Source: an uncultured Phycisphaerales bacterium
GTDB taxonomy: Bacteria > Planctomycetota > Phycisphaerae > Tepidisphaerales > Tepidisphaeraceae
Assembly (NCBI GenBank): GCA_963758525.1
Contig: CAVWVQ010000003.1
Coordinates: forward strand, 1,760,001 to 1,824,000
Direction of reading: 5' to 3'
Length of the DNA: 64,000 bases
The translations under genes and the position numbers were made by a program. How positions within the stretch are numbered: the first letter of the stretch is position 1; every line of letters begins with the position of its first letter. The notes beneath the pieces were generated by a model, which was not told the DNA's origin, ran no database searches, and saw only the letters and a list, made by a program, of their open reading frames with translations. This document shows, piece after piece, positions 26,649 through 63,142 of the stretch.

Positions 26649-26761
26649 CCCCGCTTGCGGGGTGTGTCCAGCGGCGCAATCCCCGAAAACGCGCAGTTCC
26701 GTGCTCCCCGCTTGCGGGGCGTGTCCAGCGGCGCGATCCCCGAAAACGCGCAGTTCCGTGC
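26649..26761 (+). repeat. Tandem duplication with a 57-bp period, containing palindrome CCCCGCTTGCGGGG
   Basis: Units start at 26649 and 26706 and differ at 2 positions. Confidence 0.85.
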
Positions 26762-27362: not shown

Positions 27363-27589
27363 ATCGGCAACGTTCATACCGAAGCTCCCGTACGACGTCC
27401 TTTGCGGATCAGAAGCATACGGTAGCAAGAGCAGCAGTTTGCCGGCACTGGGAATTCAGCCGCAGCGATCGAGTCCCGATGTCAGGCATGGGATCGGGCC
27501 CCGCAATTGCATCAAAATGACATCATCGGATCACTGGCGTTCGGACGCCGCGACATTTTCGCTGCACGCCGAAGCGAGGCACGCAACCG

Positions 27590-28084
27590 CTACCCCTCGG
27601 CGGCATCCGCGAACGCGACGTTGCCGGGATGAATGTCGAGCAGCGTGAAGCCGGTTGCCAGCCGGAACATCTCGGCGACGTGTAATGCGTCGTCCAACCG
27701 ATCGCCGAACATCTCGCGCATGCGCTCCTGATGCTCGGCTACGATCTCTGCGTCAAAATCCGGGACCTGATTTGGCCGTTTCGCCCCGGCGAAATCCAGC
27801 ACGAACGGCCGCTCAACGATCGTCATCTCGATGGCAAGTAACGCATCATCAAAATCGAGGAGCTTGGGAACATTGTGGTCCGCGATGCGCCGCGTTCCTT
27901 TGGCAGACAGAATCAGATAAACTTCCAGTTCACGCTCAAATCGCTCGCGCCGGTCAAAGAATTTAACGGCACTGAACCGATCTGAGCGCAACACGAAGCC
28001 GTCTTGTCCTGGTCCCGACCCCAGGAAGCCCTGCAGTTGGCAATTGTACCGCGAGGTAAAAACGGCTATTCGAGGATCGACCAT
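27590..28084 (-). CDS. Small protein-kinase-like protein
   Basis: GSGPGQDG loop, AVK, ERELEVY, VLDFAG, LDIHPGNV; GGAGGG RBS. Confidence 0.65.
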   Translation of the reverse strand: MVDPRIAVFTSRYNCQLQGFLGSGPGQDGFVLRSDRFSAVKFFDRRERFERELEVYLILSAKGTRRIADHNVPKLLDFDDALLAIEMTIVERPFVLDFAGAKRPNQVPDFDAEIVAEHQERMREMFGDRLDDALHVAEMFRLATGFTLLDIHPGNVAFADAAEG

Positions 28085-28361
28085 GGAACCCTCCCTCAAA
28101 TCCCCAACGCCCCGCGCCGGCTCGCCATGGACCTATGCATCGCTCGCCGTGATAGACGGCCAGCGATGCCTGAAGCCGGCGCAGGTGGGACCGGATCATC
28201 TGCTGTTCTCCAAGCCCCCTCGCCTGACAGGCGAGCGGATCGAGATCATCCTCCAAAACGGCGACGAAGAGCAACGCAGCTTCGCCAATGTCCTCCCGCA
28301 TCCCGCCGATGCCACGATGATACCAATTCAGCTTCTGATACCCAGCCAAAGCCCATCGTGA
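28083..28361 (+). CDS. Small hypothetical beta-rich protein (92 aa)
   Basis: GAGG RBS, ATG at 28083; AQVGPDHLLF..P motif. Confidence 0.55.
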   Translation: MEPSLKSPTPRAGSPWTYASLAVIDGQRCLKPAQVGPDHLLFSKPPRLTGERIEIILQNGDEEQRSFANVLPHPADATMIPIQLLIPSQSPS

Positions 28362-28376
28362 GAATTTCTTCTCGCG

Positions 28377-28484
28377 ACGGACGTGGGGCCGCGTTCGGAT
28401 GAACGCGGAAGTTCGCAATTGGCCCGGGAAACTTCCCTCGGTGGCATAGCTTCAATGGAGCCGCGCGCGTGAAGGGGCGGAAAT
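28377..28484 (-). CRISPR. Antisense one-spacer mini-array with two diverged repeats (candidate crRNA-like regulatory RNA)
   Basis: R1 28484-28449 ATTTCCGCCCCTTCACGCGCGCGGCTCCATTGAAGC; 36-nt spacer 28448-28413; R2 28412-28377 ACTTCCGCGTTCATCCGAACGCGGCCCCACGTCCGT. Confidence 0.85.
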
Positions 28485-28908
28485 CGTGGGCTCCTTGTGG
28501 GTCGCGACCGCAATTCGCCACGAAAATAAATCGCTGCACCGGACAATTCCCACTGAACCACTGTTGTCAGTGACGCTTGGTAGAAGCAGTCAACGGCAAA
28601 CGCTGAACGCGCCCCGTTTAGCCGGTGGGCACCTGTCTTGAGCGAAGTCGAAAGGATGCCCGCCGTGTCGCCGCAGGCGAACCCCCCCCCTGTCGCGAGT
28701 ACGGAAAATGTTTGGTGAACGGTTTGCGGCTCGATAACGTACGCCTGCTCACATCGGGGGAACTCAAGAAGTACCCCGACCGAGCCGGAGGCCAGGGTGG
28801 CCGAAGCTCCGCACTATCGGGGCGACGCGCGGAACGAGCGAATTATGCCAATGAGCGAATGAGTGGAACACTCGTCCGCGTGACGGTTTGACTGCAAAGG
28901 GCGGCCAA

Positions 28909-31572
28909 ATGACCCCGGAACAATTCAGGATCGTGTTCAAGCAACTGACCGACAACCGGCCATTTCCATGGCAAGAGGCGCTCTACGAGCAATTCATCTC
29001 AGATCGGCCTGACAACATCCCCGCGTCGTGTAACATCCCTACGGGATTGGGGAAAACCTCCGTCATCGCAATCTGGCTGATCGCGCTTCTGAACCATCCT
29101 GCCAAGATGCCGCGCCGTCTCGTCTACGTCGTCAATCGACGGACGGTGGTGGACCAGACAACAACAGAAGTCGAAAAACTTCGTGAAAACCTGCCGAAAT
29201 TGAAATCTTCTCTGAACGCTCTGGCGATCAGCACACTGCGTGGTCAATTTGCCGACAACCGCGAATGGTCCGCCGACCCTTCTCGCCCGGCAGTGATATG
29301 TGGGACGGTGGACATGATCGGTTCGCGATTGCTGTTTAGCGGATATGGCATTGGTCGAAACAGCAAACCGCATCATGCGGGTCTGTTGGGGCAGGATGTG
29401 CTGCTCGTGCATGATGAAGCCCATCTTGAGCCGGCATTTCAGGAGTTGCTTCTTTCGATTGAGAAACAACAAAGCGAGCTTGAGCGGACAGCCCTTCCCT
29501 GGCGCAAACTACGAGTGATGGAGCTTTCCGCCACTTCCCGCAGCGGAGGCGAAGTTTTTGAACTTACGGAAGCCGAGAAGACGCCACCAAATCCGCTACC
29601 CGATAGCCCTTCAGATCCGATCCACTTTGCGTGGCTTCGACTCAGTGCAAAGAAAGGCATCAAGCTGATCCCGGTTACAAGGAATCTTGTTGCCGCGACG
29701 ATCGGCAGCATCGCTCTCGACCGTTGGAAGTCCTCCGGTAAAGCAATCCTGATTTTCGTACGCTCCATCGATGACGTAAAGGCCGTCCGTGCGGAGTTAA
29801 CCAAGAAGATGATCGGCGTTCCCGATGACCAAGTTCAAATTCTCACAGGCACGAAGCGCGGCTTGGAACGAAATCGGTTGGCGACGGATGACGCGGTCTT
29901 CGCTCGTTTTCTTCATTCTCCGATTGCCACTCCCAAGTCTGGAACTGTGTACCTGATCAGCACATCAGCCGGGGAGGTGGGGGTGGACCTTTCGGCCGAC
30001 CATCTTGTCTGCGATCTGACTCCACTTGATAGTTTCATGCAGCGCCTAGGACGCGTCAATCGTCGGGGTTTCGGCGCCGCGGAGGTTGATGTTATCTATG
30101 AATCGAATCCCGACCCGAAGCCCAGATCGCCAAAGTTTGAGGCGGCGCGTCTGAAAACTCGCGACGTTCTTGCCACTCGTCTCGTCAAAGCGGATTGGAT
30201 TGAGGACCGACTGGATGGATCGCCGCTCGCGCTTCGCGGGCTAAACCTCAGCGATCTTGAGCGTGACGAAGCGTTCACACCCAAGCCAAGGATCGTACCC
30301 GCGACTGAAATCGTGTTCGATTCCTGGTCACTCACAACGATCAAGCATGAATTTCCCGGTCGGCCGCACGTCGAACCATACCTGCATGGGATCGCGGATT
30401 GGGATCCTCCACAAACCCAGGTCGCCTGGCGCGAGGAGGTTGGAGTCATCACCGCAGGCCTGCTGGGCGAATACGAGCCGTCCGATCTTCTCGAATACTA
30501 CCCGCTCAAGCCGCATGAATGGCTCACCGACCGCTCGGACCGCGTATCGAAAGAACTTGCCGACATCGCAGATCGGAACAACGGTCAATTTGCCGATACG
30601 CCCGTGTGGCTCGTGGATGGGACGGGCGCAGTTAATGTCGTCAGGCTTGGAGAGCTCGCCGACAAACAGAGGAAAGGCCAAATCGAAGGTCGGACCGTCC
30701 TGCTTCCGCCCATGGTTGGTGGACTGACGGGTGACGGAATGTTGGATGGGAAATCACCGTCTGCAAATGACGTGGCCGACGAATTCAAGGTCGAGGTGAA
30801 GAGCAATGGGATCGAATCGCTCGAAAACGGGCGTGTCCGCGTATGGGACAGCGACCCGATGCGAAGTGGAAAAGTGAAATGGATGCGCTTTATCTGCAAG
30901 ATTGTCCCGGCGTCAGAAAGTCAAAATGGTGACGAGGATTCTCCCCCGAACTCATGGCAGTGGTTCAAACGCGCCGAGGTTGGCGATACCGATGGATCAA
31001 AGGCCGCGGCCGCACCAGTCTTATGCGACGTTCACACGGCCGACGTAGTCCGCGAAACAGAGGGCTTCATCTCTCGCCTCCCCGAACTTCCCGACGCATT
31101 GAGACGGGTCCTCAAACTTGCCGCATACTATCACGATCAGGGGAAACGCCGCGAGCTGTTCCAGCGGGTGCTCGGTAACACAAATTTGTCAGTAGCGTGG
31201 GCAAAGTCCGGTGGACGGAGAACGCCCCGTGACCTTCGCACTCCGTACCGCCATGAATTCGGCTCCCTCCTGGACATCCAGCAATCCGGTGAATTCAAGT
31301 CGCTTGACACCCACGCGCAGGATCTCGTGCTGCACCTCATCGCTGCCCACCACGGCCGCGCGCGGCCTCACTTCGAAGGCGAAGAGGTTTTCGACCCGGA
31401 TCACCCCGATGACGTCGCCATCGCGTTGGCGACCGAGACGCCCCGACGCTTCGCCCGGCTCCAACGCAAGTTCGGACGATGGGGGCTAGCTTACATCGAA
31501 TCCCTGCTCCGCGCGGCCGATCACGCGGCCAGTGCATGCCCGTCGGAAACTGTGAAGGAAGATTACGAATGA
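28909..31572 (+). CDS. cas3: Type I-G Cas3 helicase with C-terminal HD nuclease
   Basis: PTGLGKT, YVVNRRTVVDQ, DEAH, SAT, QRLGRVNR; C-terminal HDQGK, RHEFGS, AAHHGRARP, RAAD. Confidence 0.96.
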   Translation: MTPEQFRIVFKQLTDNRPFPWQEALYEQFISDRPDNIPASCNIPTGLGKTSVIAIWLIALLNHPAKMPRRLVYVVNRRTVVDQTTTEVEKLRENLPKLKSSLNALAISTLRGQFADNREWSADPSRPAVICGTVDMIGSRLLFSGYGIGRNSKPHHAGLLGQDVLLVHDEAHLEPAFQELLLSIEKQQSELERTALPWRKLRVMELSATSRSGGEVFELTEAEKTPPNPLPDSPSDPIHFAWLRLSAKKGIKLIPVTRNLVAATIGSIALDRWKSSGKAILIFVRSIDDVKAVRAELTKKMIGVPDDQVQILTGTKRGLERNRLATDDAVFARFLHSPIATPKSGTVYLISTSAGEVGVDLSADHLVCDLTPLDSFMQRLGRVNRRGFGAAEVDVIYESNPDPKPRSPKFEAARLKTRDVLATRLVKADWIEDRLDGSPLALRGLNLSDLERDEAFTPKPRIVPATEIVFDSWSLTTIKHEFPGRPHVEPYLHGIADWDPPQTQVAWREEVGVITAGLLGEYEPSDLLEYYPLKPHEWLTDRSDRVSKELADIADRNNGQFADTPVWLVDGTGAVNVVRLGELADKQRKGQIEGRTVLLPPMVGGLTGDGMLDGKSPSANDVADEFKVEVKSNGIESLENGRVRVWDSDPMRSGKVKWMRFICKIVPASESQNGDEDSPPNSWQWFKRAEVGDTDGSKAAAAPVLCDVHTADVVRETEGFISRLPELPDALRRVLKLAAYYHDQGKRRELFQRVLGNTNLSVAWAKSGGRRTPRDLRTPYRHEFGSLLDIQQSGEFKSLDTHAQDLVLHLIAAHHGRARPHFEGEEVFDPDHPDDVAIALATETPRRFARLQRKFGRWGLAYIESLLRAADHAASACPSETVKEDYE

Positions 31573-32420
31573 GTAAACCCCTCACTGTCAAAGTAGATCT
31601 GACCAACCCCGGCCAGTTCTTCGCCTGCTGCGGTCTGCTGGAACTCGCCAGCAGGTTGGACACTCACGCGGAGGGTTGGTTTAAGGAGGACTCGTTTTGC
31701 GTCGCGGGACAAATTGAGGGCGTGGTAGACAAATTTCTGGCCTGCAACGTCAGTCCGATCCCGACAGAACCTTCCGCAGGCAACGACGACGATGACGCAG
31801 AAGCGGACGATGCCGCGGTGCCTAAGACTACACCGCTTCAAGTCGGACCTCCGTTTAACATTCGCCTTGACTGGTGGCGCGATCCGGCTGCGACCACGAA
31901 GGCCAAGCTCAAGACGTGGTCCGCCGGTCAGAAGGTGACCGATCTTTTCAACGGAACGACCAAGACCCGCACAACGAAGAAAGGACCAAAGGACTCCTAT
32001 CTTCCATCAATGCGTGATCATTTTCGTGATGTCGTGAAAACGCATCCGAACGACTGGCTGAGGCAGACGATCGCCACGGATTCGCCGATGCCCTACTGCT
32101 ACGACAGTCGTCTCTCGCGTAAGGCGCTACTCGACGCTGGCCACTACCGGTTCGGATTGCTGGCCTTTTCTCCGGCCGTTGACGTGCTTGTGCATGTCGC
32201 ATTTCAACGATTCCGGCCTTTGATGATCGAGCAATGGAATCGAAATCTGTATTGCACATGGTCAGTGCCCTTAACTGTTGAAATTGCATCGGTCGCGGCG
32301 CTGGGCATTATTCCTAGCCTCATCGATTTAAGTTTCGAGTTCCCAATCAAACCGTGTGACGCGGCGGGCCGGTACAAGCTCTTCGGTCATGCTCAACCTG
32401 TAAGGAAGGCACATGTCTGA
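31569..32420 (+). CDS. cas8g: Type I-G short large subunit (Cas8g/Cas8u2, Csb3-like)
   Basis: VDLTNPGQFFACCGLLELA, LDWW, KTWSAGQ, QRFRP, YCTW; lies between cas3 and cas7. Confidence 0.75.
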   Translation: MSKPLTVKVDLTNPGQFFACCGLLELASRLDTHAEGWFKEDSFCVAGQIEGVVDKFLACNVSPIPTEPSAGNDDDDAEADDAAVPKTTPLQVGPPFNIRLDWWRDPAATTKAKLKTWSAGQKVTDLFNGTTKTRTTKKGPKDSYLPSMRDHFRDVVKTHPNDWLRQTIATDSPMPYCYDSRLSRKALLDAGHYRFGLLAFSPAVDVLVHVAFQRFRPLMIEQWNRNLYCTWSVPLTVEIASVAALGIIPSLIDLSFEFPIKPCDAAGRYKLFGHAQPVRKAHV

Positions 32421-33507
32421 TTTATTGCACAAGCACGACGACCTCCTCAAGGACACCGGCCCGGCGGCCGTAGTCTTGAAGCATTGGCTCCAAGCCGTGG
32501 GCGGAGCCATATTCTTTCCTCCAACGTACGCAAACCCGTCACAGAAGAAGGGCGATCCCCCTGTATATAACATTGACCGCTTCGAAGACCCCAAGCGCTC
32601 CGTGGGTGTTGTCGATAGCATTCCCGCGCAGGCAAACCGAATCGAGCCATCACTGGGGCGAATTACCAACAACAAAGGCAAAACCGTGCGATTGGTTCCG
32701 CAAATCGTCGTTACCGCCAAGGTGAAGGATGACGACGGGAAGGATGTCTTTCAGCAAGTCAATCTTCTTGACGCCGGACATCGCGCAGCGGACGCGGTCG
32801 TGCAACTTTCCTCGCTCCGCGACGATATCACAAAGGCGATCAGGGCGAGGAGATCGGGCGATTCAAAGCCGCTTGCGAAACTCGCGCCGACCTCGCTGGT
32901 CTTCGGAATGTGGGACTCGCGGGAAAGCGGCATCAAGGTGTCGCGAATTCTGAACTCCATTATTCGGGCGTACGACGTTCTCGAATATCGCCGATCATCA
33001 CAGTTCAACGCTGCGCTCGATTATGAATCGGCGGGAGTAGCGCCGGGCAAGGGCGAAAAGAAACTTTCCGAAGTCGGCATGGACGGCGCGCCAGCCACGT
33101 TCCAGCACGGCGGGATCGAGGCACGGGGCGGAATCTGCAGAGAGGCGTCCCTTAATCTTTGCACGCTTCGAGACATCGTTACGTCAGACACCAAGGAAAC
33201 GCTCAAGCTTCAGCGCTATATCCTCGGTCTGGCTCTAGTGGCGATTACCCACTTCGACGGCAAGGCGCTGAATCTTCGCCAGGGCTGCCAGCTCGTTGGT
33301 ATTCCCGACAAGCCCATGTCGCGGCACCTCATCAAATCCGATGGCACAATCGATCCATTTGATGTCGATCGAGATGCTGCAATTGCTTATGCCAGTGCAA
33401 CAGCCGACGACTTTGGGGTCGGTGAGGATCGTCTTAATGAAACATTCGATGCCAAAGCCGCAAAAGCGGCCCTGAAGAAGAAGGAAAAAGAGGAGGCATC
33501 CACGTGA
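32413..33507 (+). CDS. cas7: Type I-G Cas7 (Csb1)
   Basis: FFPPTYA, VDSIPAQANRIE, AGHRAADA, PTSLVFGMWDSR, LRQGCQL. Confidence 0.93.
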   Translation: MSDLLHKHDDLLKDTGPAAVVLKHWLQAVGGAIFFPPTYANPSQKKGDPPVYNIDRFEDPKRSVGVVDSIPAQANRIEPSLGRITNNKGKTVRLVPQIVVTAKVKDDDGKDVFQQVNLLDAGHRAADAVVQLSSLRDDITKAIRARRSGDSKPLAKLAPTSLVFGMWDSRESGIKVSRILNSIIRAYDVLEYRRSSQFNAALDYESAGVAPGKGEKKLSEVGMDGAPATFQHGGIEARGGICREASLNLCTLRDIVTSDTKETLKLQRYILGLALVAITHFDGKALNLRQGCQLVGIPDKPMSRHLIKSDGTIDPFDVDRDAAIAYASATADDFGVGEDRLNETFDAKAAKAALKKKEKEEAST

Positions 33508-34942
33508 TCTTCCTCCTCTCCATCCGCTTCCTCGACGATCGGTACCACGGGACCACCGACAACGGCGAGAGTACCGAATGGCCGCCCTCGCCGCTTCGGG
33601 TTTTCCAGGCAATGGTCGCGGGCAACGCGCGCGGCGATCGGTTGCCCGACGTGGTACGGGACGCATTGCTCTGGCTCGAAAAGCTCGACCCGCCTGACAT
33701 CATCGCGCCGGGCGGCTGGGACGGAATGCCACTCCTGACGTATGTGCTCAACAATGTGTCGGATTCAAATTTTAATAGCCGCGCGCCTAAGACGATTCGA
33801 CCAACGATTCTGAATGGGGACCGGCTCGTTGAATACGCTTGGACATTCGATCCGTCGGCAGAGTCAGATCGCCAGATTGAGACCTTAATCGGCGCGTCGC
33901 GACATATCCGGGCGCTGGGATGGGGAATTGACCTTGCAATCGGTCATGGCGAAAGGAAGGAAGCTTCAACGCAGACTCCGCCCCACCGAAATCGTTATGT
34001 GCCGGCGCGCACCTTGACAATCGCCGGCAAGGATCGGCGGGTGCCGCGCGATGGGAGCCTCGTCTCGCTCGAGGAAACTTACCGACAATTCCTGGCGCGG
34101 TACGAAACTCCTGGAGTGACTGCGTTCGAGTCCGCTGGTGCGATTTACGACACCGTGCAATATGGAGTCGGCGCGGCGCGCCCTTGCGTCGCGTTCAAGC
34201 TGGTGAACGAGGACGGCGATACTGTCACGATCCGCCAACAGCTCATTAAACCGCTCGTTGGCATGATCCGAAATCTGGCGAATGACCCGCGCCTCGTTGC
34301 TCGATTCGGACAAGAAACGATCGACCGAGACGTCATGGGCCATCCGAAGAGCGGAACAGAAAATCGCGTCTCAATTCTCCCGCTTCCGACGATTCGCGAA
34401 GGTCCAACCGACGGTCGCATCAGAAGGGTGATGTTCGCTCAACCGGCTTCATCGGACGGTGCGCTCTGCCGCGCATTTGACACTTTATTGGATGGCGCGG
34501 CGCTGCATCCGGAAATGAATGAGACGCGTTTGCAGGGTATCCAGCTTGAACGAATCCACCGCAGAGATTCAGTGCTACGTGCGTACACCGATGAATCCGA
34601 AGTTTGGGCTTCGGTTACCCCGGTCCTGTTGCCTGGATATGACGACCGCAAGCAGCATCGTGGCAATCATGTTAAGCGGCTTGCGCGGCGGAAGAGTTAT
34701 GCCAAAAGGCTTTGGCGCAAAGCGGTCTCCCGAGAGCTAAAGATATTCAATTGTCCCGCGTTCCTTATTTCTCGGGGTCACAACACGTCCGTGACTACCA
34801 CCCGCGCGCGAAATTGAGCAACTATCCGCGCTATCACGTGCGGCTGGAATTCGAGCAGTCAATGAGCGGGCCAGTTGCGATCGGCGCGGGACAGCACACC
34901 GGCTTTGGAACTCTTGCTGTTTACGACAAGAAGGGGAGATGA
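33504..34942 (+). CDS. csb2: Csb2 (Cas5/Cas6 fusion), frameshift near 34690
   Basis: RYHG, EWPPSPLRVFQAMVA, LGWGID, WASVTPVLLP; Gly loop GPVAIGAGQHTGFG in second frame. Confidence 0.92.
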
Positions 34943-34946
34943 TGCC

Positions 34947-35873
34947 ATGCCCTCCAACGTCTCCATCACCGGTGATGACGCCCTGACGCTCGACATGGTC
35001 GGGCAATACACCTACTGCCCGCGGCGGTTCCACCTGATGTACGTGGAAGGACGCTGGGACGACAACGCCTACACGATCGAGGGACGGCACATTCATCGCC
35101 GCGTGGATCGGGTCGATCGGTTCTTGCCGGAGGCGGACGCAGAGAAGAAATCGGCCGATGATGCGGTGCGGGCGGCGGCTGCGGGTGACGAGCCGCCTGT
35201 GGTTTCGCGGTCGGTGCCGCTGGCTTCCTCGGCACTGGGACTGTCAGCGAAGCTGGACCTGGCTTCCAGCGACGGGGACGAACTCATTGCGCGGATCGCC
35301 GTCGTCGAGTCGGTGGATTCGCTGCTCGGGCTGGAGGGGAACGTCGCGCGGCAATACTTCGAAAACTTCTCCGCGATGCTCAAGCCGCGTGACTTCGACG
35401 CGGATTGGGATTTCAACTCGCGCAACCGCAGGCCACCGAAAGATCCGGTCAACGCGATGCTGTCGTTCGCGTATGCGCTGCTGGCCAAGGAATGCACCGT
35501 CGCGCTGCTGGCTGAGGGGCTGGACCCTTACTGGGGTCTTTACCGCAAGCCGCGTCATGGGAGGCCGGCGATGGCGCTGGACCTGATGGAACCGTTCCGG
35601 CCGGTCGTCGCGGATTCGGCGGTGATCACGGCCATCAACACCGGCATGGTGCGCGGCAACCATTTCACCCGCGCAGCATCCGGCTGCGCCATGAATGACA
35701 CCGGCCGCAAAGGCCTGCTCCGTGCCTATGAAGCCCGGCTCGACCAACTCGTGACCCATCCGGAATTTGACTACCGATGCTCCTGGCGATCGGTCATCCG
35801 ACTTCAGGCCCGGCTGCTCTCCCGCTGGTTGCGCGGAGACGTGCCCGAATATTCCAACCTTGTTACGCGATGA
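34947..35873 (+). pseudogene. cas4-cas1: Cas4-Cas1 fusion with large in-frame internal deletion (308 aa)
   Basis: Cas4 N-half (YCPRR, EGRHIH, KLDL) joined near 35283 to Cas1 helical domain (LLGLEG, RNRRPPKDPVNAMLSFAY, ALDLMEPFRP). Confidence 0.88.
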
Positions 35874-35879
35874 TCACCT

Positions 35880-36170
35880 ATGAACCGCCGACATCTTCTG
35901 GTTACCTACGACATCAGCGACGACAAACGCCGAACCTCCGTCTTCAACCTCCTCCAGGCGAATGGAGATCACGCCCAATACTCCGTCTTCCTCTGCCAGC
36001 TCAACAACGCGGGACTTGCGCGTCTGCAGGCGGCGCTACAGCCGATGATCCACGCGACCGAAGATCAGATTCTGATTCTGGACCTTGGCAGGGTAGAATA
36101 TTCGGAGGCGCTGGCGATGGTCACCCTCGGCCGCGCATATGCCCCGCCGATCCGAACAATGATCGTCTAG
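35880..36170 (+). CDS. cas2: Cas2
   Basis: LVTYDISDDKRR, QYSVF, DQILILDLG. Confidence 0.96.
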   Translation: MNRRHLLVTYDISDDKRRTSVFNLLQANGDHAQYSVFLCQLNNAGLARLQAALQPMIHATEDQILILDLGRVEYSEALAMVTLGRAYAPPIRTMIV

Positions 36171-36346: not shown

Positions 36347-39300
36347 CCTTCCGCGCTCATCAGAGCGCGGCACCATTGAAGCACCGTGCCACCGATCGCG
36401 TTCAGCGTGGTGACCAGCCTTCCGCGCTCATCAGAGCGCGGCACCATTGAAGCGCAATGTGTTCTATTTTTAGTTCGTCAGCGTTCATCCTTCCGCGCTC
36501 ATCAGAGCGCGGCACCATTGAAGCAATACCGCGCAGTGCCGGTTCGACTCCGGCCAGCGACCCTTCCGCGCTCATCAGAGCGCGGCACCATTGAAGCCGG
36601 TATCGCCGATCCTCCAGGCAGTTGGCGCCCGGTCCGCCTTCCGCGCTCATCAGAGCGCGGCACCATTGAAGCCTGCCCCATCTACGTCGCTCGCGTTCTG
36701 GAAGCCTTCCTTCCGCGCTCATCAGAGCGCGGCACCATTGAAGCCCGATGCGCCTGTCACGGGCATGAGGTCCGGCGTGGCCTTCCGCGCTCATCAGAGC
36801 GCGGCACCATTGAAGCCTGGAGGTAAAGGTGTCCTGCGCTCCAAGCGTTGCCGCCTTCCGCGCTCATCAGAGCGCGGCACCATTGAAGCAAGTCAACTTC
36901 TCGTTGGCCTTACGCTCAGCTTCGACCTTCCGCGCTCATCAGAGCGCGGCACCATTGAAGCGACTTCGGCCGCGCTCTTCACTGCCGACTGCTGGAGCCT
37001 TCCGCGCTCATCAGAGCGCGGCACCATTGAAGCTTGCCGGCGTTGTTGGCGCGACGAACAACGGTAAGGCCCTTCCGCGCTCATCAGAGCGCGGCACCAT
37101 TGAAGCACTTGGAACAGCCTTCATCAGCTTGTCCTGCCACGGCCCTTCCGCGCTCATCAGAGCGCGGCACCATTGAAGCCGTCGCGTTCGCGAAGTCGTG
37201 GGGATACGGCTCGCCCCCTTCCGCGCTCATCAGAGCGCGGCACCATTGAAGCACGTTTATTCTTTTGATTGACGGGCAAACTTATTCACCCTTCCGCGCT
37301 CATCAGAGCGCGGCACCATTGAAGCAATTCCCGAATCGTCCAGTCAATCGCCATCCATGCGCCTTCCGCGCTCATCAGAGCGCGGCACCATTGAAGCACA
37401 CTGATGAGCACCGGCAAGTCCACGCGCGGAGGAACCTTCCGCGCTCATCAGAGCGCGGCACCATTGAAGCTAGGGGTAGGTTGCAATGATCCGATCGGCC
37501 GCTGCGCGCCTTCCGCGCTCATCAGAGCGCGGCACCATTGAAGCAGCTGGACACCCGCGCCACCGCGGCCGAGTCGGCTGCCCTTCCGCGCTCATCAGAG
37601 CGCGGCACCATTGAAGCAGCGCGATTCTGCACCTTCGCTTCGGATGCGCCGACCTTCCGCGCTCATCAGAGCGCGGCACCATTGAAGCAAACGATGTCAG
37701 CATGTATCGTGAGGTGATGGCATTCCTTCCGCGCTCATCAGAGCGCGGCACCATTGAAGCAGCGAGATATTGCCACTGATCGAACGTTTGACGCCACCTT
37801 CCGCGCTCATCAGAGCGCGGCACCATTGAAGCCAGTCGGCCGCGTTCGATTTCGCAACCCTACCTGCCCTTCCGCGCTCATCAGAGCGCGGCACCATTGA
37901 AGCCTTGCAACAGCATCGGGAACGGTTGACGACACTTTCACGCCTTCCGCGCTCATCAGAGCGCGGCACCATTGAAGCCTGTCATCCCCCGAGCCCGACG
38001 AAGACCCCGACGTCCTTCCGCGCTCATCAGAGCGCGGCACCATTGAAGCATGCAACGAAGTTTCGGGCAGCAACTCCTCTGTCAGCCTTCCGCGCTCATC
38101 AGAGCGCGGCACCATTGAAGCCTTCCCGACGGCACCCAGTTCAGCGCGTTCCCTTCCGCGCTCATCAGAGCGCGGCACCATTGAAGCGATGCCGCGGGGC
38201 TGGGAACCCGCCGCGAGCGGCGGCCCTTCCGCGCTCATCAGAGCGCGGCACCATTGAAGCGGGATGAACAATCCGTTGCGCGAACCGGGAACGCACCCTT
38301 CCGCGCTCATCAGAGCGCGGCACCATTGAAGCATTGCCATTGGGCGTAAGGGCAAAGAGGCGACGATTACGCCTTCCGCGCTCATCAGAGCGCGGCACCA
38401 TTGAAGCACCTTCCCAAGCGTTCCATACGTTTTGCGTGCCAGCCTTCCGCGCTCATCAGAGCGCGGCACCATTGAAGCTTGACGGATTGTGACTCGTTCG
38501 TGCGTCGGCTTGGCGCCCTTCCGCGCTCATCAGAGCGCGGCACCATTGAAGCGAGACGATCGAAGGCAGGCAGTGGTGCAACGGCGTACCTTCCGCGCTC
38601 ATCAGAGCGCGGCACCATTGAAGCATTTATGGCTGAAGGACGTTGGGTTGAAATTCATGGACGCTTCCGCGCTCATCAGAGCGCGGCACCATTGAAGCTC
38701 ACGGCAGTCACTGGCCTCGGCGGTGAGTTCATCACCCCTTCCGCGCTCATCAGAGCGCGGCACCATTGAAGCATCCCGGAGTGGGCTTGGGCCACATCCG
38801 ACTTCATTGCCTTCCGCGCTCATCAGAGCGCGGCACCATTGAAGCTTGCTGTCCTCCCACACTGCGAACGCGCTTGCCAGCCTTCCGCGCTCATCAGAGC
38901 GCGGCACCATTGAAGCACGACCTGGCCGACGCGATTCTCGGCCGGGACCACGGCCTTCCGCGCTCATCAGAGCGCGGCACCATTGAAGCATCGGCGCGTC
39001 CCCGCTCGTCGTCATGGCCGTCGTTCCTTCCGCGCTCATCAGAGCGCGGCACCATTGAAGCTCGGTTCGGATCGACCCGCGCGACGCCGATATGGCTCCT
39101 TCCGCGCTCATCAGAGCGCGGCACCATTGAAGCGTGTGCCTGCCGCTGGCGTGGCCGGTGCTGTTGGCGGCCTTCCGCGCTCATCAGAGCGCGGCACCAT
39201 TGAAGTATGCCGCTTCCGTCGATGCCAACGGAGTTGACCTGCCTTCCGCGCTCATCAGAGCGCGGCACCATTGAAGCACGCTCGACGGCAACGGACTGCT

Positions 39301-39349
39301 GGAAGTGAACGTCCCTTCCGCGCTCATCAGAGCGCGGCACCATTGAAGC
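36347..39349 (+). CRISPR. CRISPR array: 42 repeats of 36 nt (CCTTCCGCGCTCATCAGAGCGCGGCACCATTGAAGC), 41 spacers
   Basis: Counted by hand; 8-bp hairpin CCGCGCTC/GAGCGCGG; spacers 35-39 nt except one of 30 nt; single-base variants at 38663 and 39206. Confidence 0.99.
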
Positions 39350-42709: not shown

Positions 42710-43040
42710 GGGGAAAGGGGGGAAGGCACGGAGGGGGGAAGGCACGCAGGGGGGAAGGCACGGAGGCACGAAGGGGGGAAGGCACGAAGGCACGGAGGCA
42801 CGAAGGGGAGGAAGGGGATGTTTGTGGCGGGCACTTGGTTCGACATAGTTGTTCCGCCGATCGCGCGGATCGTTTCAGTTGGTTGATTGAACGGCGTGCG
42901 GCTTGCGGCGTATGGAAGAGTAGGTACGAAGGCATCCGCCACGTCGGATAAACTGCGGCACGAAGGGAGGAAGTAGGATGTTTGTGCTTTAGTTGGTCCG
43001 TTGAACGGCGTGCGGCTCGGGGCGTATGGAAGAGTGGGAT
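42710..43040 (+). repeat. Purine-rich AAGGCACGG tract plus imperfect duplicated blocks
   Basis: AGGCACGnAGG repeats at 42724-42810; TTGAACGGCGTGCGGCT..GGCGTATGGAAGAGT twice (~42887, ~43001). Confidence 0.65.
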
Positions 43041-63030: not shown

Positions 63031-63142
63031 ACTTTCTAAAAAATTGGGTGTACAAGCTGAACAGCTTATTGGACGCGCAGAATTTTCTTCCTCCCCGCGC
63101 TGAGATTCGATATAATTCGTTGCGTTCTGGAGGTCGAGTTGT

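Follow-up and report, generated by a model that had tools for sequence, protein, structure and literature searches.

In the window, by which we mean the whole 64,000-nt stretch of planctomycete DNA analysed here, a type I-G CRISPR-Cas locus is preceded by a two-repeat, one-spacer mini-array at 28377-28484 that lies on the minus strand and is directed away from cas3. This arrangement raises the question of whether the single spacer guides Cascade to the leader of its own cas operon and, if so, to which site. An earlier note on this DNA had proposed that Cascade binds a partially matching site just upstream of cas3 and thereby represses the operon, in a feedback loop that anti-CRISPRs might relieve.

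The type I-G locus and its mini-array

Based on matches to NCBIfam profiles, the locus is a type I-G CRISPR-Cas system with the following components.

28909..31572, + strand: cas3g, intact (TIGR02621, 624 bits against a cut-off of 400; a full-length single frame in comparison with two relatives)
31569..32420, + strand: cas8g (TIGR04106, 122 bits, just below the cut-off of 125)
32413..33507, + strand: cas7g, or csb1 (TIGR02570)
33504..34942, + strand: csb2, a Cas5-Cas6 fusion (frameshift near 34686; the C-terminal ~85 residues in another frame)
34947..35873, + strand: cas4g/cas1g fusion with an in-frame internal deletion of ~265-285 residues (alignment with loci L203, L248 and L202)
35880..36170, + strand: cas2 (TIGR01573)
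36347..39349, + strand: main CRISPR array with 42 repeats of 36 nt and 41 spacers

The surrounding genes encode planctomycete-type domains, and the genome is 90.9% complete. Because of its internal deletion, cas4g/cas1g has a profile score below the cut-off, and spacer acquisition has probably been lost for the same reason. The frameshift at 34686 puts the C-terminal glycine-rich Cas6 motif of csb2 out of frame; it may be an assembly or read error instead of a real change. Frames are split at 7 of 33 gene sites sampled from the assembly (43.5 kb), two of them in the locus of the window, and because such splits are this frequent, we did not take the csb2 frameshift as strong evidence of decay. 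In a quick tree, Cas8g of the window groups with those of L203, L040, L088, L153 and L155 (SH-aLRT 99); this clade comprises 6 of 105 sequences, with identities of 44-53% within it and ~30% to sequences outside it.

We made several side observations on repeats and spacers. Spacer 3 of the main array (36525-36561) resembles a tRNA T-arm by eye and perhaps originates from a phage tRNA gene. Spacer 39 (39134-39170) has a partial match, 19 nt of it perfect, to the chromosome of the same genome (C1:234489-234530) as well as weak matches in several genomes, and its source is possibly a conserved gene. A 57-nt tandem duplication is present at 26649-26761 and an 8-nt G-rich tandem repeat at 42710-42813.

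The mini-array has three parts.

28449..28484, - strand: repeat 1, degenerate, 25/36 identical to the main repeat
28413..28448, - strand (read 28448->28413): spacer of 36 nt, a candidate regulatory guide
28377..28412, - strand: repeat 2, degenerate, 25/36 identical to the main repeat

Of the main repeat, repeat 1 retains the final 10 nt, with the 8-nt 5' handle among them, and its hairpin is decayed (-4.7 kcal/mol, z=+1.1). Repeat 2 has lost the 3' handle and retains the 8-bp hairpin, with one base pair altered on both sides; it folds into the same structure as the main repeat (-13.4 kcal/mol, z=-3.1). As judged from the handle, transcription of the mini-array would run opposite to cas3. The element has the properties by which Shmakov et al. 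(10.1101/2023.03.03.530964) define standalone mini-arrays, and the same arrangement is found in 22 relatives (see below); its spacer falls in the length class of theirs (34-40 nt among the 20 with targets). No Rfam match was found at 27500-29100.

Beyond repeat 2 lies a head-to-head gene pair with overlapping start codons, which encodes a kinase-like protein of 164 aa (27590-28084, - strand) and an unknown protein of 92 aa (28083-28361, + strand). The Atlas neighbours of the kinase-like protein, YrbL-PhoP_reg and phage T7 kinase, are leads only, and the protein has no Pfam match. Of 169 relatives, 9 have the kinase-like gene ahead of cas3, and 8 of these 9 have a mini-array.

A partial spacer match upstream of cas3

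The site named in the earlier note is the following.

28841..28859, + strand: AAT flank (28841-28843) and partial spacer match (28844-28859)

We confirmed each element of its description: 13 of 16 positions match, positions 1-7 are perfect, the flank is AAT, and the match lies 50-65 nt before the ATG of cas3 (28909). The mismatches are at positions 8, 9 and 13, and beyond the match, positions 17-24 all mismatch. Two of the 13 matches fall at positions 6 and 12 and do not contribute to pairing, since every sixth base is flipped out by the Cas7 of type I-G.

Different statistics give different answers as to whether the match is better than chance. Under the rule of the earlier note (first 7 positions perfect and at least 13/16), which is post hoc and fitted to the observed match, a match within the 454-nt region is obtained with 17 of 20,000 shuffled spacers (P=0.00085); in the genome, 7 further sites satisfy the rule among 12.94 million positions. 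With a plain prefix score, the site has P=0.02, and none of the 41 array spacers reaches its score. With a flip-aware score that disregards every sixth base, and that was set after three loci had been inspected by eye, the site scores 6.5 (shuffle P=0.18). A score of at least 6.5 is reached in the same region by 10 of the 41 array spacers and by 3 of 22 foreign mini-array spacers, and at 1,653 sites in the genome. An unrelated site with a GCG flank, 1.3 kb upstream of cas3, scores higher (7.0).

Guides and targets co-vary in related type I-G loci

On the model of the earlier note, spacer and target should co-vary among relatives. We collected 213 loci with a related Cas3, corresponding to 170 non-redundant loci with the window included. 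The relatives were found by alignment query; single-protein scans of genome and metagenome contigs gave none. A screen for a handle plus a hairpin yielded 65 candidates, of which 23 were kept, i.e. the window and 22 relatives. We dropped plus-strand hits, candidates that lacked a second repeat or whose second repeat lacked the stem-end motif, candidates with a spacer outside 33-40 nt, and one locus that has a complete array upstream. These curation criteria are independent of the target score, yet they were written after the result of the screen was known.

For 20 of the 22 relatives, the mini-array has a site scoring 10-16 in its own cas leader, which is where the relatives' targets were looked for. 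None of the other 22 spacers scores at least 10 in any of these 20 leaders; because only the own spacers reach this score, spacer and target co-vary, as the model would have it. The two relatives that lack a leader target are L185 and L188, and L185 represents a second case without a local target. In the 20 targets, the fraction of matches is 0.15, 0.20 and 0.20 at positions 6, 12 and 18, respectively, at least 0.95 at positions 1-5, 7, 8, 10, 11, 16 and 17, and 0.70-0.90 at positions 9 and 13-15, and matching reaches background by about position 22. Fourteen of the targets are located 64-165 nt from the mini-array, four are at most 60 nt from the cas3 start, and 12 have a -35-like pentamer beside them (background 25%). 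A variant layout is seen in L153, whose guide is in antisense orientation in the leader, 84 nt before cas3 and between its target (-313) and cas3, and where a second repeat is not recognisable.

Compared with these targets, the site in the window has 4 mismatches among 15 paired positions (0-3 in the relatives), and two adjacent mismatches within the seed (positions 1-11), where none of the 20 relatives has more than one. Its flip-aware score, at chance level in the leader, stands against scores of 10-16 in the relatives.

As far as sequence comparison can tell, regulation of the CreR (Cas-regulating RNA) type very probably operates in this type I-G clade. The prediction for intact relatives is that transcription of the mini-array runs away from cas3 and that Csb2 trims the guide at repeat 2. 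Once loaded into the type I-G Cascade, the guide would base-pair over ~15-17 nt, every sixth base being left out, with a TTN-flanked site on the promoter that heads the cas operon. Pairing of this length would suffice to block RNA polymerase but not to trigger cutting. The general idea of the earlier note, a divergent mini-array that guides Cascade to the cas leader, is therefore borne out for the clade by the co-variation in 20/22 relatives and not for the site that it named.

TTN flanks the targets of related systems

The flank was not part of the target score. Among the 20 relatives' targets, 18 have a TTN flank (TTC in 10, TTT in 5, TTA in 2 and TTG in 1), and the other two have CTT and GTG. 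In a looser screen of 59 handles, TTN was present at 21 of 24 high-scoring sites versus 2 of 32 low-scoring sites; all 24 targets scoring at least 11 have a T at -2, which AAT lacks.

Within the Cas8g clade of the window, TTN flanks both of two real protospacers and one of two guide targets. The L153 guide has a target with a score of 16 and a TTG flank, and L203, the closest syntenic relative, has the non-TTN flank GTG. The protospacers belong to the L040 system (genome G855), for which we found two near-perfect matches among 73 distinct spacer strings, one flanked by TTG (35/36 match) and one by TTC (1 mismatch, 1 indel); both protospacers lie in the assembly that carries the array, possibly on a mobile element that was co-binned.

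For the 41 spacers of the window, no convincing protospacer was found in the same genome, phages, plasmids and 141 genomes of the family, where repeat matches dominate, or in IMG/VR, which was queried with exact 20-mers taken from 4 of these spacers. The L155 and L040 arrays gave no protospacers against phages, nor did those of G737 and G091 when compared with the genomes that contain them. A search for further members of the Cas8g clade gave two in 401 genomes of the class, neither with a mini-array handle upstream, and no new member in 301 genomes of the order of G855. In the rows of a PAM catalogue (PMC8482600) that cover I-U repeats ending like those of the window, the PAM is TTN. As far as the comparison goes, with TTN at 18/20 targets and TTG and TTC at the protospacers, the PAM would be incompatible with AAT. 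The PAM of the window is predicted to be that of its relatives. Because both the flank (AAT instead of TTN) and the pairing differ from those of the relatives' guide/target pairs, we classify the element as a mini-array and not as a functional CreR.

Promoters and repeats in the cas3 leader

We noted three features in the leader.

28551..28586, + strand: degenerate palindrome CTGACA-N6-TGTCAG (28551-28572) with a weak -10-like hexamer 8 nt downstream
28612..28683, no strand: dispersed REP-like palindromic repeat, with 7 and 10 genome copies of its halves
28705..28740, + strand: putative second promoter, TTGGTG-17 nt-TAACGT, the upstream part of which recurs in 3 relatives

The palindrome is conserved upstream of cas3 in ~14 of 169 relatives, in several of them beside WYL-type genes, and two of the four WYL genes of the genome adjoin such palindromes (C3:806085 and C3:2639581-2670074). 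The palindrome is likely a WYL operator, and 28551-28586 is a candidate WYL-regulated promoter of the cas operon; the locus in the window has no WYL gene itself. Binding of a WYL activator to a palindrome between -35 and -10 is among the findings described in PMC10693628. A scan for the sigma-70 consensus gave no promoter in the leader, and the second candidate promoter is below the threshold of that scan. The REP-like repeat is split by a 24-nt insertion, which is a second element. An 88-codon ORF at 28625-28891 was rejected as a gene; it has no family match and no homologue in 169 relatives, and it overlaps the dispersed repeat.

From either candidate promoter, 28844-28859 is predicted to be in the 5' leader, about 100 and 250 nt downstream, and not on the promoter. 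For roadblocks formed by Cas9 and Cas12, the blocking side is the one on which the PAM faces RNA polymerase. A roadblock in the 5' leader would be possible in principle, given stable binding; the flank and the seed argue against such binding here, and it is likely that Cascade would not bind 28844-28859 stably. Cascade-guided feedback at this site, the core proposal of the earlier note, is not supported, in view of its AAT flank, its two seed mismatches and its position away from the two candidate promoters.

The target of the mini-array has probably been lost

In L202, L203 and L204, the order is mini-array, target, sigma-70 region-4 gene, palindrome and cas3. In the window, repeat 1 and the palindrome are just 66 nt apart. 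L203 also has the flanking kinase-like gene of the window, and L204 has the small flanking ORF. On the simplest reading, 0.5-0.8 kb would have been lost together with the target, the sigma-like gene and probably the promoter of the guide; because the sequences are too diverged, the ends of this deletion are not mappable at the nucleotide level. Possibly, the locus descends instead from an ancestor that never had the sigma-like gene. Other wear at the locus includes the deletion in cas4g/cas1g and REP-like insertions in the leader.

The assembly contains no site comparable to the targets of the relatives: the best TTN site in the leader of the window scores 2.0, and the best genome-wide scores 11.5, which is at chance level (P=0.145; C3:4951836, minus strand). 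We also considered a possible relic, TTC followed by five matching bases, which at 28514 is 68 nt away from repeat 1, in the zone of many of the relatives' targets; it is not significant (P=0.10).

Taken together, we favour, with a probability of about 0.65, that the element is a real CreR-like mini-array whose true target has likely been deleted, and that the 13/16 match is likely the best chance match of its region. Some observations count against this reading. The perfect hairpin kept in repeat 2 suggests recent function of the mini-array; the target in L203 has its GTG flank; under the prefix score and under the rule fitted to it, the site is better than a typical chance match; and its position has a precedent in the four relatives with targets within 60 nt of the cas3 start. 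The prefix-score result and the position would also suit a decayed former target, which once had TTN and better pairing and from whose repression the operon has since escaped, and so would the other decay in the locus. We nevertheless regard a decayed target, not working now, as improbable: ~6 of 20 nt would have had to change (2 of them in the PAM and 4 at paired positions) while matches were kept at positions 6 and 12, which match in just 15% and 20% of the relatives. The site also lacks the promoter-like pentamer that accompanies 12/20 targets, its GC content (0.58) is above that of the context of every relative's target (0.32-0.53), and synteny places the ancestral target beside the mini-array.

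Somewhat less probable still is a guide that acts in trans, on a site elsewhere in the genome or in its unassembled part. The C3:4951836 site has a TTT flank and pairs at 13 of 15 positions, with mismatches at 6 and 12, and because the genome is only ~91% complete, the target could be unassembled. The score of the C3:4951836 site is, however, reached by 14.5% of 200 shuffles and by 10 of the 41 array spacers, the site is ~100 nt inside a 348-codon ORF, and all 20 curated relatives have their targets in their own leader, the one region searched there. We give the least credence to the model of the earlier note, in which the AAT site works, Cascade blocks transcription in the 5' leader and anti-CRISPRs relieve the feedback. 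It draws on the perfect positions 1-7 and the low P value under the fixed statistic, and on a location in the predicted 5' leader where the PAM side would face RNA polymerase from either candidate promoter. Among 30 of the 34 I-U rows in PMC8482600, one gives AAN, for a 29-nt repeat unlike that of the window. Shifting the register by 2 nt would provide a TTA flank and a score of 7.0 (P=0.016 over three registers); we rejected this shift, because the register is fixed by the 8-nt handle described for a type I-G effector in PMC9638904, and the flip pattern of the relatives likewise counts from the handle. Against a working AAT site stand the TTN flanks of the clade at large and of the Cas8g group to which the window belongs, the two adjacent seed mismatches and a csb2 that is frameshifted in the assembly. 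The small remainder of the odds falls to sequence error and other roles. On the favoured reading, that of a mini-array that has outlived its target, the earlier note was right in kind and probably wrong about the site; we infer the deletion, like the expression and processing of the guide and the repression that it would exert, from sequence.

A sigma-like gene at the head of the cas operon

In 9 of the 20 relatives (L041, L054, L078, L204, L203, L202, L031, L067 and L194), an ORF of 128-223 aa is located between the mini-array and cas3, at or just behind the guide target. Eight of the nine ORFs have sigma-70 region-4 matches at E<=0.01, and four are above the Pfam cut-off. A tentative idea, which we consider rather doubtful at present, is that the guide in this clade represses an ECF-like sigma-70 region-4 gene that heads the cas operon and often has a WYL-type operator downstream of it. 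If so, loss of Cascade, e.g. through anti-CRISPRs, would free a transcription factor together with the cas genes, making up an RNA-guided two-step alarm, and the window would represent a mutant of this guide/sigma circuit that arose by natural deletion. A sigma-like gene that recurs in this place and is controlled by the guide may give type I-G immunity an additional level of regulation. In the literature searched, we found no paper that pairs mini-array guides with a sigma-factor gene.

Comparison with known systems

The approximately 20 independent type I-G guide/target pairs give a rule, namely a TTN flank, pairing to about position 17 and free positions 6, 12 and 18, and they are ready test cases in a subtype for which CreR regulation has, in the material of Liu et al. 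considered here, been predicted. In the parts of Liu et al. (10.1101/2023.03.10.532045) that concern us, CreR mini-CRISPRs are supported by experiments in I-B, I-E and V-A, and I-U (I-G) elements come from a manual search (Figure S7). The literature searched contained no experimental paper on a type I-G CreR; preprint supplements may list I-G cases. The terms I-G and I-U are absent from the main text of 10.1101/2023.03.03.530964, and the passage of 10.1101/2024.10.29.618823 considered does not name I-G.

The element in the window has features in common with the CreR of Liu et al., as far as described in those parts: it is a degenerate two-repeat, one-spacer element beside the cas operon, in which repeat 1 has the nucleotides of the 5' handle and repeat 2 has the 3' part with its hairpin. 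Unlike the site in the window, the targets of CreR have a canonical PAM and adjoin a predicted promoter. Shmakov et al. survey regulatory mini-arrays, and in the account considered, all of their manually examined targets have a cognate PAM, which the site in the window lacks. The relatives follow the rules given there: their mini-arrays are opposite to cas3, the seed is beside the better repeat, sixth positions are free, and pairing to the cas promoter region is partial.

CreTA likewise has degenerate repeats and represses by means of a guide with partial complementarity. In work attributed to Li et al. in 2021, the CreA guide of CreTA reportedly represses the CreT toxin; passages of 10.1101/2023.03.10.532045 and PMC9458426 describe CreTA as well. 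In the window, we found no toxin gene whose promoter carries a target of the guide, and across the window, no in-register TTN site scores above 6.0, the one with this score being at 63142. The locus may have a small toxin RNA of unknown type.

The type I-G effector of Thioalkalivibrio sulfidiphilus, as described in the sections of PMC9638904 relevant here, has an 8-nt handle and a Cas7 that flips out every sixth base; the same sections cite a TTN PAM for type I-G and leave open how type I-G reads it. That locus and the one in the window share cas3g, cas8g, cas7g, csb2, cas4/1 and cas2 as well as a 36-nt hairpin repeat; unlike the T. sulfidiphilus system, the window has an internally deleted cas4g/cas1g and a csb2 that is frameshifted in the assembly. 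Viewed against these systems, the element in the window is a further mini-array of the described kind that probably no longer works.
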